A stretch of 64,000 bases of DNA from the NCBI RefSeq assembly GCF_056712565.1, contig NZ_CM160072.1; one strand, written 5' to 3'. Under the pieces are notes generated by a model. That model was not told the origin of the DNA. It was given only the letters and a program-made list of their open reading frames with translations, and ran no database searches. A program made the position numbers and the translations under genes. Below are positions 24,368 through 33,313 of the stretch, in pieces. How positions within the stretch are numbered: position 1 is the stretch's first letter; every line of letters begins with the position of its first letter.

Positions 24368-24480
24368 ATAACACTGGAGAATAAAATTTATCCGGTGAAT
24401 GTAGTCGGAAAACAAAGAGGAAAGGGGATAGGGGCTAATCGGCAGGGAAGGCCGCCCCGGATAGCGGGCGGCAGAAGGAA

Positions 24481-25254
24481 TCAGAATTTCCAGGTCAGAT
24501 GGGCTGCAAGTTGCAGACCGTTATAATCATCGGTTGGGGTGTCGTACCACACTTTACCTGCCGTCAACCCGAGATTAAGTTGCTCAGTCAGCGGTTGAAT
24601 ACGTTGCAAACTGATGCTCTTCATGCTGCCGTAGCGTGTTTCTGGCGTCCAGTCGTAGGTGTAAGCACCTGTTCCGCGGCTTAGCCATAGTTGCGTGTAA
24701 CCAGTGCCGCGCGGGTCATTCAGACGCACGGAAATCATATTGCTGTAACTACCACCTGCATCGCTGGAGTCATAATGGGTATAGCGATAGCTGGTGATCA
24801 CCGGGCCAGTATAGAGTGATATGCCACCTTGCCAGGCATCGACTTCGACATCATCGTAATATTTAGTGTAGCGATAACCGGTCGTGAAAAGCGTTTTTGG
24901 CAACAGGGCCAGGTTAATATCCTGACGAAAATCCTGGCGGGCAAAGACCGGCGTATTATCCGCAAAGGCAATACCCGTTCGGGTTGTCAGCCAGTTATTC
25001 CATTTGTACCAGACTGCACCCTGGCCGCGAGTGGCATTGAAATGTTCAGTTTCATAATCACGACGCCCCTGGGAAAGATTAAAAAGCAGCGTTGCGTTTT
25101 CAACTTTCGCCACCAGTTCAGCATACGCTAAATTACGGTTGCCATGATCGCCAGAATAATCGGTAAAATCGTAGCCCGCGGTAATGGAAGTTAACCCGGC
25201 ATAAACGGGTAATGCGCTAAAAATTGCCGCCGCTAATAACGTCCGTTTTATCAT
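24481..25254 (-). CDS. yaiO: Outer-membrane beta-barrel protein
   Basis: 257 aa; signal peptide MIKRTLLAAAIFSALPVYA; alternating aromatic/polar strands; C-terminal TWKF. Confidence 0.75.
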   Translation of the reverse strand: MIKRTLLAAAIFSALPVYAGLTSITAGYDFTDYSGDHGNRNLAYAELVAKVENATLLFNLSQGRRDYETEHFNATRGQGAVWYKWNNWLTTRTGIAFADNTPVFARQDFRQDINLALLPKTLFTTGYRYTKYYDDVEVDAWQGGISLYTGPVITSYRYTHYDSSDAGGSYSNMISVRLNDPRGTGYTQLWLSRGTGAYTYDWTPETRYGSMKSISLQRIQPLTEQLNLGLTAGKVWYDTPTDDYNGLQLAAHLTWKF

Positions 25255-25255
25255 T

Positions 25256-25966
25256 TTAATCTCCTGTACGGATAAGTTCTTGTCGGAGTGAATAAGTTCC
25301 GGTAGGTAAATTACGTTCTACAATCACGCGCGGGCCAAGTTGCGTGTTCGGGGAAATAATTCGCCCAGGCAAAATAATAACTTGTACGCCAAGGCGTGAA
25401 CGCTGCCCGATATAACAACCTAATTTATCGCATCCGGTAGCGATAATTCCATCTGGAGTTCGAACAGACACGGGCTGTTCATCCAGACGATGATTACTGG
25501 TTCGTACTTGTGCGCCCAAATATGCCTGGTTTGCAACTACCGAGTCGGCAATAAAGCATTGCGGACCAATCGTGGCTTCCGCTTCAATAACCGCATTTTT
25601 AATTTCGGTGGCAAAACCAATTCTTACGCCATTGCTGATTATTGTGCCAGGACGAATAAACGCATAATTACCTATTAGGCAGTTTGCGCCAATCACTACC
25701 GGACCCTGAATAACGGCACCGTGGCAAATACGGGTATTCGCGCCGATAACAACCTCACCGGCACTTTCATCAATAATCACCTGGTCTGCAATCTGAATAT
25801 TTTTCTCTTTAACATTAAGCTTCAGATAGTTTTTCAGTTCCTGTGACAGAAGGGTGGGAATAAGCGGTTGACACTTCCACCAGTGCGGAATAGCGGGTGG
25901 GTTTGTCGCGCTGAGGTTCGCGTCCAGTAAAAAAGGCAATAAGTCCATAAATAATCCAGATGGCAT
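25256..25966 (-). CDS. yaiX: Hexapeptide-repeat (left-handed beta-helix) acyl/acetyltransferase; start codon uncertain
   Basis: Repeated [LIV]-G-x-x-x-x hexapeptides (VIGANTRICHGAVIQGPVVIGANCLIGNYAFIRPGTIISNGVRIG); 5' end overlaps yaiP by up to 152 bp; stop is 1 bp from yaiO ATG. Confidence 0.6.
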   Translation of the reverse strand: MPSGLFMDLLPFLLDANLSATNPPAIPHWWKCQPLIPTLLSQELKNYLKLNVKEKNIQIADQVIIDESAGEVVIGANTRICHGAVIQGPVVIGANCLIGNYAFIRPGTIISNGVRIGFATEIKNAVIEAEATIGPQCFIADSVVANQAYLGAQVRTSNHRLDEQPVSVRTPDGIIATGCDKLGCYIGQRSRLGVQVIILPGRIISPNTQLGPRVIVERNLPTGTYSLRQELIRTGD

Positions 25967-27071
25967 AAGCTAATAATACATACACAACGGAAAGCGGTGC
26001 TAAAGGCACCAACAACCAGCAACGATGAAACCAGGCGCTAAATGCACCAATAACACAAACTACGCCGACCCAGATAAGCGGGAACATTGCCAACACCACA
26101 CCATGTGGCCCGGTGGTGATGAATTCATTAAACCAGGTAGTGAGATAAATACCAACGCCATAAAGCACAACCAACAGCATAGGAAATATACTGAAGATAC
26201 CGAAGCGGCTAAATAAAAGTCTTTTATGCAGGCGCATACAGACCGCGTAGCCCACAATCCAACGCCGCCAGCGGCGCCACTCCTCACGCGGACTGTTACA
26301 TTCCTGTGGGTATACGATGCAGCGATTCGCCTGCCGAATACGGTAGCCGTTTGCCACCAATGTCCAGGTGAGATCAAGGTCTTCGACTTTAGTACGATCC
26401 GAGAAACCGAACTTACGCAATACATCAGTACGGAACATCCCGCAGGCACCGCTGATGATAAACGGTGCGCCGCCCAGAAGCTGCTGTAGCGTGCGCTTCA
26501 TAACAATCATCGGCAACTTTACGGTCGCGCGGATGTGTAGCTGCTGTAGCGTGCGCTTCATAACAATCATCGGCAACTTTACGGTCGCGCGGATGTGTGG
26601 TAACAGACCCGCGCCTTTCAACGCAGTAGAGGGAATGCCGCCTACGGCATCAGCGCCACGCTCAATTTCCGCCAGCATATAGCCCATTCCGTCTTGATCG
26701 GGCGGAACATAGGTGTCGGCATCACTTAAAAAAACCTGATCGCAGGTGGCGTAATTGAGGCCATTCATCAGCGCACCACCTTTACCGGTATTTTTTTGCG
26801 TGACGGCAACAAAGCGGTCGCCCCATTTGCGTTTGACTTCCGCCATGACCGCTTCGGTATTGTCCATGGAGCCGTCGTTAACGCAAATTACCCGGCAAAA
26901 ATAAGGGTTACGCAGCAGATTATCCAGTGACTGCGCCAGACACGGGCCTTCGTTATAAGCAGGTATAATGGCGTCAATACAGCCTTTCTTTTGGCTGGGC
27001 TTACGCCTTAACGTACTCAGAAACCATAGCAATATTGCTACGGCCATACATATAAAGATCCAGGTTTTCAT
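25815..27071 (-). CDS. yaiP: Integral-membrane family-2 glycosyltransferase (synthase-like topology)
   Basis: 418 aa; N-terminal TM, CVNDGSMDNT and SDAD (DxD) motifs, EEWRRW (QxxRW-like), four or more C-terminal TM helices; contains a 20-aa tandem duplication. Confidence 0.75.
   Translation of the reverse strand: MKTWIFICMAVAILLWFLSTLRRKPSQKKGCIDAIIPAYNEGPCLAQSLDNLLRNPYFCRVICVNDGSMDNTEAVMAEVKRKWGDRFVAVTQKNTGKGGALMNGLNYATCDQVFLSDADTYVPPDQDGMGYMLAEIERGADAVGGIPSTALKGAGLLPHIRATVKLPMIVMKRTLQQLHIRATVKLPMIVMKRTLQQLLGGAPFIISGACGMFRTDVLRKFGFSDRTKVEDLDLTWTLVANGYRIRQANRCIVYPQECNSPREEWRRWRRWIVGYAVCMRLHKRLLFSRFGIFSIFPMLLVVLYGVGIYLTTWFNEFITTGPHGVVLAMFPLIWVGVVCVIGAFSAWFHRCWLLVPLAPLSVVYVLLAYAIWIIYGLIAFFTGREPQRDKPTRYSALVEVSTAYSHPSVTGTEKLSEA
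26479..26598. repeat. Perfect 60-bp tandem duplication (2 copies) inside yaiP
   Basis: agctgctgtagcgtgcgcttcataacaatcatcggcaactttacggtcgcgcggatgtgt at 26479-26538 repeated exactly at 26539-26598; encodes HIRATVKLPMIVMKRTLQQL twice in frame. Confidence 0.95.
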
Positions 27072-27080
27072 GCAATTTGC

Positions 27081-27767
27081 TCAAAGAATCATTTTATGAA
27101 TAACAAAACCTTCACCCAGATCGCTATTGACCTGTTGCCCGCGAAATTGAGCAACTGCACGCAGACGCTCCGGGCGCATATAATCTCGCTGGCTCTGACT
27201 TTTATGTTTTTTTAACGCAGTCAGTTTAAGAGAAAAATATTCTTCTTTCACGGATTCAAAAACCTGAGGCATAAATGAAAGCCAGGTACTTGGTGTTTCA
27301 TAGCCGAGAATTTGCGGAATAGCGCGACAGGCAACCATTGAGGCTTGATAGACTGCAAGATGATCCTGATGGCGGTCAGCATCATGCATGGTATATACAC
27401 GTATAATTTCAACATCAGAGGGAATTTGATTTTTTATGATGTTTTCCAGGGCAGAAATCATATCATTGAGCTGTAAATGAGCGCGGGTGTCAGCAAAATT
27501 AAGATGAATAGTTTGGTGGCACCCTAATATCTTTAGAGCGTTGCGTGATTCTTCGTGGCGATCGATTATTCCATCTACGCCAGAATTACCGGTAGTCATC
27601 ACTACGGTAGCAATATAAATTCCTTTTTGCGCAAGGCGAGCTAGCGATGCGCCACAGCCTAATTCTATATCGTCAGGATGCGCGCCAATGGCAAGGATAC
27701 CCTTTCTTTTATTTGCCGAAGAAAGGATCGCTGAATCTAAAACCTTATCCACTTTATGACACTCCAT
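27081..27767 (-). CDS. yaiS: PIG-L/LmbE-family de-N-acetylase
   Basis: 228 aa; LAIGAHPDDIELGCG and HQDH metal-binding motifs; stop is 9 bp from yaiP start. Confidence 0.75.
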   Translation of the reverse strand: MECHKVDKVLDSAILSSANKRKGILAIGAHPDDIELGCGASLARLAQKGIYIATVVMTTGNSGVDGIIDRHEESRNALKILGCHQTIHLNFADTRAHLQLNDMISALENIIKNQIPSDVEIIRVYTMHDADRHQDHLAVYQASMVACRAIPQILGYETPSTWLSFMPQVFESVKEEYFSLKLTALKKHKSQSQRDYMRPERLRAVAQFRGQQVNSDLGEGFVIHKMIL

Positions 27768-28359
27768 TTTATTTATTATACTACAAGCACAACGACGCCC
27801 CCAGAGACGTAACCTCTGACGCAGACAGATGCTAATTTTTAAGTGTTAAAAATAGCTGATAGCTGAAAAACAAGGGGCTGTCAGGTACGGGGGTAAGAGT
27901 GTGTAATCTTTTATGTAGTTCATATGTTAAGTGTTTGTGTGTTTGGTTTGTATGGTTATTTTATTTTATATATTGTATTTAAATGTGATTTAGTTTGTCA
28001 ATTAATTGCATATTAAAAATATGTTCTATGCACAAATATTGATTATATACATTATGTGAATACATTATGTGGTTGATTGAGAATGATACATTTATATATG
28101 CAATGTGAATATAATGGTTTCATTATATGTGTTGCTGTTAATAAAATAACAGACATTAGAACCTGCTTGTTTATGCATTAATAAAATGAAGTGCAGTAAT
28201 TTACTGAGTTATCAGAGTGGGCGTAATTGCATATTTAATCTTTCCTTTGCCGCTTTTTTGCTAAGAATAAAATCATCTGTACGATAACGACTAATTCTTT
28301 TAATGAATGTTTTTATTCCTGAATACTGCTCCCATAACAAGACGGGGGAGCAGACAATC

Positions 28360-29322
28360 ATGGTAATTTCATCGCGTAACACATTTCTTGCCGCACTGGC
28401 ATTCATCGCTTTTCAGGCGCAGGCGGTGAACGTCACCGTGGCGTATCAAACCTCCGCCGAACCGGCGAAAGTGGCTCAGGCCGACAACACCTTTGCTAAA
28501 GAAAGCGGAGCAACCGTGGACTGGCGTAAGTTTGACAGTGGAGCCAGCATCGTGCGGGCGCTGGCTTCGGGCGATGTGCAAATCGGCAACCTCGGTTCCA
28601 GCCCGTTAGCGGTTGCAACCAGCCAACAGGTGCCGATTGAAGTCTTCTTGCTGGCGTCAAAACTGGGTAACTCCGAAGCGCTGGTGGTAAAGAAAACTAT
28701 CAGTAAACCGGAAGACTTGATTGGTAAACGCATCGCCGTACCGTTTATCTCCACCACCCACTACAGCCTGCTGGCGGCGCTGAAACACTGGGGTATTAAA
28801 CCTGGGCAAGTTGAGATTGTGAACCTGCAGCCGCCCGCAATTATCGCCGCATGGCAGCGGGGAGATATTGATGGTGCTTATGTCTGGGCACCGGCGGTTA
28901 ACGCCCTGGAAAAAGATGGCAAGGTGCTGACCGATTCTGAACAGGTCGGGCAGTGGGGCGCGCCGACACTGGACGTCTGGGTCGTGCGGAAAGATTTTGC
29001 CGAGAAACATCCAGAGGTCGTGAAAGCGTTCGCTAAAAGCGCCATCGATGCTCAGCAACCGTACATTGCTAACCCAGACGCGTGGCTGAAACAGCCGGAA
29101 AACATCAGCAAACTGGCGCGGTTAAGCGGCGTGCCGGAAGGTGACGTTCCGGGGCTGGTGAAGGGAAATACCTATCTGACGCCGCAGCAACAAACGGCAG
29201 AACTGACCGGACCGGTGAACAAAGCGATCATCGACACCGCGCAGTTTTTGAAAGAGCAGGGCAAAGTCCCGGCTGTAGCGAATGATTACAGCCAGTACGT
29301 TACCTCGCGCTTCGTGCAATAA
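28360..29322 (+). CDS. tauA: Taurine ABC transporter periplasmic binding protein
   Basis: Start at MVISSRNTFLAALAFIAFQAQA (signal peptide); 320 aa; track ORF begins 19 codons upstream. Confidence 0.9.
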   Translation: MVISSRNTFLAALAFIAFQAQAVNVTVAYQTSAEPAKVAQADNTFAKESGATVDWRKFDSGASIVRALASGDVQIGNLGSSPLAVATSQQVPIEVFLLASKLGNSEALVVKKTISKPEDLIGKRIAVPFISTTHYSLLAALKHWGIKPGQVEIVNLQPPAIIAAWQRGDIDGAYVWAPAVNALEKDGKVLTDSEQVGQWGAPTLDVWVVRKDFAEKHPEVVKAFAKSAIDAQQPYIANPDAWLKQPENISKLARLSGVPEGDVPGLVKGNTYLTPQQQTAELTGPVNKAIIDTAQFLKEQGKVPAVANDYSQYVTSRFVQ

Positions 29323-32788: not shown

Positions 32789-33313
32789 GGTCTGCCTGAT
32801 GTTTGTGGAATCGAGGAGCATAGTATACCTGAAGCAGGCTGGGTGTGTTTTACGAAAGTTGTCGCGATGTTGACAAAAAGAGAATGAAAAAGAGGTCAGG
32901 ACATCTTTGTAATAGAAATAGCAATAATTTCATATTCACTGAAAATATTTTTAATTTTTATTTATAGCCATAGATTATTGTTTTTGGGGATTTGGTGACG
33001 TTTCCAAAAAGTGAATAGCTTAAAGTTCATTGCTTATTGATACATTATTTGTCTGTTTTTGTTGTTTTATATTTTCATGGTCTATGTTTTAAAATTAACG
33101 CTTTCATTAACGTATTGAAATATTGTGTTTTTGTTATTTCTTTCTTTGTGTGTGTTCACGTGCTTTATATATGTCCGCAATCGGACTTAGGGGAAAGAAT
33201 AATTGAACCATTCCTCTATAACGCCGCATAATCGTAAACGCGAAACATAATATGTTTTCTATGCATTGATAATTGATGGATCAACTTATTACGTCCCTGA
33301 GGAGGGATGACAA

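Follow-up and report, generated by a model that had tools for sequence, protein, structure and literature searches.

What does the AT-rich DNA between the divergent genes yaiS and tauA of Escherichia coli control, and do the repeats and the GT-rich tract that it contains take any part in that control? The original prediction for this locus, made from the letters of a 64-kb stretch of DNA (the whole of which is called the window here), had placed a Cbl/CysB-dependent tauA promoter and a promoter of the yaiSPXO operon in the spacer, and had suggested that the repeats could be regulator sites or H-NS nucleation sites keeping the yai genes silent. The answer that I will argue for, with a probability of roughly 0.8, is that the spacer combines a tauA promoter, a yaiS promoter and an H-NS-silenced AT-rich core into one composite region of divergent control, and that the repeats and the GT-rich tract are local events within it. 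The features on which this reading is built are collected in Table 1.

Table 1. Features of the yaiS–tauA spacer and of the adjoining yai cluster, in window coordinates
Feature	Position	Strand	Basis
yaiS-yaiP-acetyltransferase-yaiO cluster	24481-27752	-	RefSeq annotation; intact in E. coli ATCC 11775
yaiS–tauA divergent spacer	27753-28359, 607 bp	.	ORFs and RefSeq annotation of identical record, composition
AT-rich core	27906-28205	.	GC 0.237, promoter-like density, orthology to K-12 promoter island 383994_309
GT-rich tract GTGTTTGTGTGTTTGGTTTGTATGG	27931-27955	+	Sequence, strand composition
Predicted sigma-70 promoter of yaiSPXO, TTGACA-18-TACAAT	28001-27972	-	11/12 consensus match and conservation
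Exact 12-nt tandem direct repeat, ATACATTATGTG x2, period 13	28047-28071	+	Sequence, shuffles
Distal tauA-direction promoter-like site, TTGAGA-16-TGCAAT	28077-28104	+	K-12 counterpart printed by Shimada et al., 2014
Second TGTGAAT, overlapping a perfect TATAAT hexamer (28110-28115)	28104-28115	+	Sequence
Conserved upstream box of the tauA promoter, CTTTCCTTTGCCGCTTTTTTGCTAAGAAT, putative Cbl activator site	28240-28268	+	Cross-taxon invariance
tauA core promoter: TAATTCTTTTA (-35 region), AATACT (-10, 28322-27)	28292-28329	+	Invariant columns, 6 taxa

The locus and its AT-rich core

The window comes from the E. coli type strain, ATCC 11775, to whose chromosome 721 nt around the spacer are 100% identical, and both the RefSeq annotation of this identical record and Pfam agree with the identities first proposed for yaiS (a PIG-L deacetylase gene) and tauA. 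In RefSeq, yaiS begins on the minus strand with a GTG at 27752, an in-frame ATG lying further upstream at 27767, and tauA, which belongs to the operon for taurine uptake, begins on the plus strand with an ATG at 28360. Between 27900 and 28200 the GC content is 0.215-0.24, against 0.40-0.46 in yaiS and 0.50-0.60 in tauA; a few hundred base pairs this much poorer in GC than the genome as a whole, with flanks at about 0.5, are what is looked for in DNA subject to xenogeneic silencing, and the 300 nt at 27901-28200 (GC 0.237) are the most AT-rich of the entire window. The AT-rich divergent region with its repeats and GT-rich tract is therefore present in the sequence as it had been described, the earlier coordinates being off by a few bases at most. 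Compared by BLAST with the rest of the window, the spacer gave chance matches of 11-19 nt only.

The four genes on the yaiS side, yaiS, yaiP, an acetyltransferase gene and yaiO, lie 1 to 34 nt apart in the RefSeq annotation and look like one operon, and this cluster is patchy in its distribution. About 1050 of 5426 complete E. coli genomes either lack yaiSPXO or carry something else in its place: in 594 of them (e.g. M70) frmR adjoins tauA, and the yaiO-yaiS cluster and the AT-rich DNA are missing, while in another 451 (e.g. O157:H7) the site upstream of tauA is occupied by genes for a response regulator, a MASE1 histidine kinase and a UhpC-like transporter. Three alternative arrangements upstream of tauA are thus found in E. 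coli, and the promoter there has two old alleles. The O157-type arrangement recurs in Citrobacter and Enterobacter; in Klebsiella mmuPM adjoins tauA (the genes were pointed to by Pfam matches), and in E. fergusonii yaiS is present and separated from tauA by a spacer of 676 bp. The same four yai genes also occur in Citrobacter sp. FP75, 77-79% identical at the DNA level and in another genomic context, with a cytochrome c peroxidase gene on one side (a trehalase gene lying beyond it) and fimbrial genes on the other. Homology of this Citrobacter locus to the window stops exactly at the yaiS start codon, and the idea that the AT-rich region is homologous to the DNA upstream of the Citrobacter sp. 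FP75 yaiS was rejected for that reason. After Citrobacter sp. FP75, the next closest relative of YaiS, at 48% identity, is found in Stenotrophomonas, and the distribution of close relatives is very patchy. Since yaiSPXO is absent or replaced in many genomes and stands in other surroundings in Citrobacter sp. FP75, it can be regarded as a horizontally moving cluster; to judge from this distribution, yaiSPXO was probably acquired horizontally. The approximately 470 bp of spacer in between occur only beside this cluster in Escherichia, the AT-rich DNA being specific to that site. The association with horizontally acquired genes that is expected of promoter islands is also found at the yaiS–tauA spacer.

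For the K-12 coordinates, the offset between the MG1655 versions U00096.2 and U00096.3 was taken to be 776 bp. Via ykiC coordinates (PMC6001520) and haplotype alignment, the K-12 promoter island 383994_309 was then mapped onto 27906-28205 of the window, a span that holds the GT-rich tract, the yaiS promoter, the tandem repeat and the TGTGAAT copies. This island, described as yaiS(-)/tauA(+), is one of the 78 K-12 promoter islands tabulated by Panyukov and Ozoline (2013; PMC3661553, Table 1), where three foreign-gene predictors flag it and where it is H-NS-bound in all of the ChIP studies cited. Furthermore, RpoD holoenzyme was found by genomic SELEX to bind the K-12 spacer in vitro, and the spacer was marked HNS in the same work (Shimada et al., 2014, PMC3946193); an RpoS holoenzyme peak between yaiS and tauA, again from genomic SELEX, is listed for K-12 as well. 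The published K-12 ChIP data for the region upstream of tauA, with which a comparison had been proposed, hence show the orthologous spacer bound by H-NS, and because the K-12 orthologue is listed as H-NS-bound, the H-NS reading of the present spacer is supported by orthology. The suggestion that H-NS silences the yai operon gains credibility from these K-12 ChIP and SELEX results, although a search of the literature found no documented derepression of yaiS in an hns mutant.

The spacer is orthologous to the K-12 island and resembles it in being AT-rich, in having predicted foreign genes as neighbours and, by a relaxed count, in its dense promoter-like sites, but the B2 haplotype of this strain differs from it by the perfect repeat, the TGCAAT of the distal -10 and the intact yai cluster. 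As a class, promoter islands (Shavkunov/Panyukov/Ozoline) are at least 300 bp long and are recognized by exceptionally dense overlapping promoter-like signals scored with PlatProm, whereas relaxed and strict consensus counts were used here. In the relaxed count of -35/-10 pairs, the core is the densest part of the window: it has 9 per 300 nt, where the window averages 1.64. Under the strict consensus, 1 promoter-like site was detected versus 3.6 expected in shuffles of the same composition, and since the strict scan gives no excess over shuffles, the density of promoter-like sites follows from AT-richness. With a strong sigma-70 promoter that lies, beside an acquired cluster, in DNA of low GC content, the locus is also similar to known cases of H-NS xenogeneic silencing (Navarre et al., 2006; Shimada et al., 2014), except that no nucleation motif stands out in this spacer: the high-affinity H-NS motif TCGATAAATT has two matches there, each with 2 mismatches, and its 83 matches in the window, against 64 ± 8, do not amount to an enrichment.

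The promoters of yaiS and tauA

A promoter for yaiSPXO had been expected inside the spacer, and a good candidate is there. Its -35 element TTGACA (28001-27996) and its -10 element TACAAT (27977-27972) are separated by 18 nt and form the sole strict consensus match in the region, and a promoter identical to it was printed for K-12 yaiS by Shimada et al. (2014; PMC3946193). The transcription start would lie near 27965, which would give a leader of approximately 213 nt. Both among E. coli haplotypes and in comparison with E. fergusonii, the promoter block is the best-conserved distal part of the spacer: a run of 25 nt (27983-28007), comprising the -35 element and the promoter spacer, is invariant across 7 E. 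coli haplotypes, and the block at 27956-28012 is 82% identical to E. fergusonii versus 28-59% for the neighbouring blocks. In RegulonDB, yaiS is listed among sigma-54 promoters; a search for sigma-54 promoters yielded nothing in the spacer that points towards yaiS, and the one good site is inside the yaiS coding region.

The predicted yaiS leader would also contain the GT-rich tract, which reads as CA-rich on that strand and would occupy about +10 to +34. The tract had been placed at 27921-27950 and is real, with the limits given in Table 1, and the strand bias around it is pronounced, the plus strand at 27905-28000 having 3 C, 54 T and 18 G. As the tract is only 59% conserved in E. fergusonii, it gives no evidence of function. 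Could the repeats and this skewed composition instead reflect an unannotated gene for a small protein or a small RNA? A hydrophobic ORF of 30 codons (27924-28016, plus strand) is indeed open in both the B2 and the K-12 haplotypes, but by hand count the two differ by 6-7 amino-acid-changing substitutions versus 1 silent one, the stop codon shifts, a Shine-Dalgarno sequence is missing, and hydrophobic ORFs arise by chance in T-rich DNA; as a small protein gene, the ORF was rejected on its substitution pattern and the missing ribosome-binding site. An RNA gene fares no better, since an Rfam scan of 27000-29000 at E-values up to 1 returned only a chance snoRNA match inside yaiS, and the folding of the predicted yaiS leader and of the distal rightward transcript (z -0.41 and +0.38) was no better than that of shuffles. 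With neither a relevant family match nor better-than-shuffled folding in the spacer, I regard a hidden small gene as hardly credible.

On the other side, the tauA promoter makes up the last 120 bp or so of the spacer (about 28240-28359), that is, roughly one fifth of it. These tauA-proximal 120 bp align without gaps among 6 taxa, with both E. coli promoter types, E. fergusonii, Citrobacter, Enterobacter and Klebsiella in the alignment, and the pattern CT..CC.TT.CCG.TTTT.T.CTAA.AA of the upstream box varies neither among the 6 nor between the two promoter types of E. coli. Other invariant motifs of this promoter are TAATT..TT.A (28292-28302), AATACTGC (28322-28329), ATAACAA and the ribosome-binding site. 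A further candidate for a conserved structure, an inverted repeat of 8 bp around the start of tauA and the ribosome-binding site, was rejected given that its inner pairs are neither kept nor compensated in E. fergusonii.

The spacing of the hexamers suggests a tauA start near 28334, and from this start the upstream box is centred near -80. Cbl reportedly leaves a footprint from -112 to -68 at the tauA promoter, and the position of the box agrees with this, so the box may well be the Cbl site. A conserved activator site upstream of a weak -35 element, as is characteristic of Cbl-type promoters, is therefore found here, with Cbl as its presumed activator. The conserved motifs at the expected activator, -35 and -10 positions are what likens this promoter to the Cbl/CysB-dependent tauABCD promoter (van der Ploeg et al., 1997), and it differs by filling the last fifth of the spacer and by existing as two E. 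coli alleles. BLAST identity with E. coli lacking yaiSPXO begins at 28322, 38 nt before the tauA ATG, and the two alleles are deeply diverged upstream of this point, where they share about 55-60% identity, and nearly identical beyond it. The allele of the present strain is the yaiS-linked one and is shared with E. fergusonii.

As for the claim that the spacer holds the Cbl/CysB-dependent tauA promoter, a conserved tauA promoter is present, but it is confined to the tauA-proximal fifth and the AT-rich core has no share in it: genera without the upstream AT-rich DNA keep the tauA promoter, and basic Cbl-dependent expression can therefore do without the distal region. The spacer as a whole has also diverged quickly. 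This strain and K-12 are about 87% identical over it and down to 67% in parts (28125-28215), the identities per 100 nt being 0.76, 0.92, 0.83, 0.67 and 0.93, in comparison to 0.96-0.99 over most of yaiP and tauA. These results bear on whether the AT-rich core might hold additional CysB sites that modulate tauA, which would make the distal region a part of sulfur regulation after all. CysB is said to protect multiple sites upstream of the K-12 tauA promoter. In addition, CysB is named among the factors acting on tauABCD in a paper based on RegulonDB, and a 15-nt element, TAATTGCATATT(A/T)AA, occurs both at 28224-28238, immediately upstream of the conserved tauA box, and at 28003-28017, next to the yaiS -35. 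However, Citrobacter, Enterobacter, Klebsiella and about 1000 E. coli keep the tauA promoter without any AT-rich region, the distal region with its 67% identity to K-12 is the least conserved part of the spacer, and E. coli without yaiSPXO have a promoter type that lacks the TAATTGCAT element. Nor do the multi-copy 9-mers of the spacer (ATTGCATAT three times and ATAAAATAA three times) help this case, a triple 9-mer being seen in 191 of 2000 shuffles and thus not significant. Extra CysB sites in the core are possible and yet doubtful, and given the other genera they could not be essential.

The tandem repeat across strains and species

The tandem direct repeat that had been predicted at 28048-28073 consists of two exact units of ATACATTATGTG, at 28047-28058 and 28060-28071. 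When the spacer was shuffled 5000 times with its dinucleotides preserved, 28 shuffles produced 12 or more consecutive matches at a lag of 4-30 nt, as did 59 of 5000 when the AT-rich core alone was shuffled. Being this rare in shuffles, the repeat can be taken for a genuine local duplication; across all the spacers of a whole genome, a few such repeats probably arise by chance. TGTGAAT is found at 28055-28061 and, close to the predicted further copy around 28101, at 28104-28110, and the 20 nt at 28092-28111 are 80% identical to 28043-28062, i.e., to the first unit with its left flank.

It is on account of this rarity that one may wish to see in the tandem repeat, together with the third copy containing TGTGAAT, the site of a specific transcription factor controlling yaiSPXO and/or the distal tauA-direction promoter. 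Its location would suit such a role, as the repeat lies between back-to-back -35 elements at 28001 and 28077, with the first unit midway between the two predicted promoters, and GTGAATATA (28105-28113) is kept in E. fergusonii (10/11). Similarly, the strains with the perfect repeat keep the yai cluster intact, whereas K-12 has an IS2 inserted in the cluster and a shorter yaiS. The rightward promoter itself was printed for K-12 as TTGAGA-16-TACAAT by Shimada et al. (2014; PMC3946193); in the present strain its -10 element (28099-28104) reads TGCAAT rather than TACAAT, the key A at position 2 being replaced by G, and the site is poorly conserved in E. fergusonii.

Conservation among strains had been named in advance as a point on which a role for the repeats would be judged, and it turns out to be poor. 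The repeat part of the spacer is carried by 4279 of the 5426 complete genomes, and an exact-word search with 36 nt spanning the repeat found it perfect in 449 of the 5426, including CFT073, 536 and NC101, while in roughly 3800 other carrier genomes the second unit matches the first at 10/12 or 8/12 positions. This second unit reads ATACATTATGTG in ATCC 11775 and 536 (12/12), ATGTATTATGTG in several hundred genomes such as KKa019 and CT265 (10/12), and ATGTAATATGCG in the K-12-like majority (8/12), which makes up the 80-90% identity band with about 3243 of the 4279 carriers; from the homologous spacer of E. fergusonii the tandem repeat is absent. The first unit behaves differently, in that none of the seven E. 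coli haplotypes examined varies at 28043-28061, which speaks for a transcription factor site, and this unit may be under some local constraint. Since GT at positions 3-4 of the second unit is common to both imperfect haplotype groups, AC is the derived state, and a two-base change from GT to AC, probably templated from the adjacent unit, would have perfected an older imperfect duplicate in one B2 sub-lineage. By its distribution, the perfect repeat would then be a recent quirk of that sub-lineage.

A dedicated transcription factor also finds little to hold on to in the geometry of the repeat, where a period of 13 nt, set against the helical repeat of approximately 10.5 bp, turns the two units to different sides of the helix, or in its recurrence, where the motif has 8 matches in the window versus 4.8 expected and is absent from the Citrobacter yaiS locus. 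By eye, no match between the tandem repeat and the consensus sequences of CRP, ArgR, PhoP, IHF or Lrp stood out. The direct-repeat operators of response regulators and the iterons do come to mind, because two to three short repeat copies stand between divergent promoters here, but the period is 13 instead of about 10-11, only two units are exact, and they are neither conserved nor recurrent. Put differently, conservation across strains and species, phasing of about 10-11 bp and recurrence at targets, by which regulator repeats are recognized, are all lacking in this tandem repeat. I consider a transcription factor site at the repeats unlikely, and the proposal that they are regulator sites finds no support in the comparison. 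The companion proposal, that the tandem repeat or the GT-rich tract are H-NS nucleation sites, finds none either, given the same poor conservation and the absence of enrichment of the published high-affinity motif. What the strain and species comparisons point to instead is that the tandem repeat, the extra TGTGAAT and the GT-rich tract are composition-driven or recent local events in fast-evolving AT-rich DNA.

What the spacer means for Escherichia coli

Returning to the composite control region, its parts might work together as follows. The approximately 120 bp next to tauA would act as a compact, activator-dependent tauABCD promoter with its upstream box (the putative Cbl site), its weak -35 and its AATACT -10, so that a Cbl-activated tauA promoter would sit at the very edge of the AT-rich core. 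Within that core of about 300 bp (27906-28205) and about 24% GC, a near-consensus sigma-70 promoter of yaiS would be embedded. By orthology with K-12, the core would be coated by H-NS, which in this strain too would largely silence a yaiS promoter that is otherwise strong, along with the many promoter-like sites that overlap there. In these respects the spacer is ordinary, namely a catalogued H-NS-bound AT-rich region of K-12 joined to a characterized tauA promoter.

A more consequential view is that the B2 haplotype, with its perfect repeat, its three exact copies of ATTGCATAT and its weakened distal -10, and likewise the tauA promoter alleles, are functional regulatory variants. I find this decidedly improbable. 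If it were true, the B2 haplotype might alter H-NS nucleation or recruit a factor, with the consequence that the surface-polysaccharide-type cluster yaiSPXO would be expressed unlike in K-12-like strains, and the two tauA promoter alleles, alike only in the activator box and the core hexamers, may give strain-specific responses to sulfur starvation. The B2 haplotype occurs in ExPEC strains that keep yaiSPXO intact.

With the spacer read as a composite control region, the practical gains are that conservation across genera delimits the tauA promoter to about 120 bp and that conservation likewise pins down the promoter of yaiS. Furthermore, anyone comparing the expression of tauABCD or yaiSPXO between K-12 and pathogenic B2 strains should bear in mind that the control regions of the two differ by 13-33% in places.

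Arrangements at the site upstream of tauA

The site 5' of tauA (window about 24455-28322) takes three arrangements among 5426 genomes: 4279 carry yaiSPXO (the yaiS-yaiP-acetyltransferase-yaiO cluster) together with the AT-rich spacer, 594 have frmR immediately next to tauA, and 451 have a cluster of a response regulator, a MASE1 kinase and a UhpC-like protein, which is also how Citrobacter and Enterobacter are arranged. Flanking frmR/yaiL (146-300 and 2678-2730 of the compared locus L001, against locus L004) are short inverted matches, 53-60 nt long, that look like REP-type palindromic elements; one of them lies immediately to the left of the point where yaiSPXO is inserted.

The state of yaiS and a sigma-54-like site within it

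In ATCC 11775 (window 27081-27767) yaiS runs to 223 codons, with an unbroken acetyltransferase gene in the same cluster; in K-12 (locus L002, 5496-6053) yaiS has 185 codons, the acetyltransferase gene is split by IS2 and the small gene ykiC is present. Several other strains have yaiS annotated as a pseudogene, one strain carries an IS1 within the 721 nt that the query matched, and an IS5 insertion into yaiS has been described in an evolution experiment. The coding region also holds a sigma-54-like site, which reads TGGCGCATCGCTAGCT in the window and TGGCGCATCGCTTGCT in K-12 (one mismatch to TGGCAC-N5-TTGCW), and this site may be the reason why RegulonDB lists yaiS among sigma-54 promoters.

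Features of the spacer, yaiS and other AT-rich stretches (window coordinates)
Feature	Coordinates	Strand or orientation	Location
TAATTGCATATT(A/T)AA copy	28003-28017	direct	adjoins the yaiS -35
TAATTGCATATT(A/T)AA copy	28224-28238	direct	upstream border of the conserved tauA block
Core ATTGCATAT, third copy	28096-28104	inverted	
Sigma-54-like site	27639-27654	minus	inside the yaiS coding region, ~100 nt in
Perfect 8-bp inverted repeat CTGCTCCC / GGGAGCAG	28326-28353		spans the predicted tauA start and ribosome-binding site
AT-rich stretch	32851-33100		between hemB and an autotransporter gene
AT-rich stretch	44201-44450		

Recurrent elements and other AT-rich stretches

A 15-nt element occurs twice in the spacer, and its core once more; in K-12 two of these three copies of element or core carry one mismatch. 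A triple 9-mer was seen in 191 of 2000 shuffles, so this recurrence is not significant. Two further stretches of the window, with a GC of 0.27-0.30, are strongly AT-rich and contain many promoter-like sites, and the one next to hemB holds ATACATTATTTG, a copy of the spacer's tandem 12-nt repeat unit with one mismatch.

Two tauA promoter alleles

The tauA promoter of E. coli exists as two deeply diverged alleles (window 28225-28322 versus L003 and L004 5890-6001, two loci of the non-yaiS type), which share ~55-60% identity upstream of 28322 and are nearly identical downstream, the breakpoint at 28322 being sharp. The first allele is linked to yaiS and is also found in E. fergusonii, while the second, almost identical to that of Citrobacter, belongs to O157:H7 and to strains with frmR adjoining tauA. 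The inverted repeat at the tauA start is kept in both E. coli promoter types, and in E. fergusonii its four innermost pairs no longer match, with no compensating changes to restore them. What the two E. coli alleles have in common is a putative activator box and the core hexamers only.
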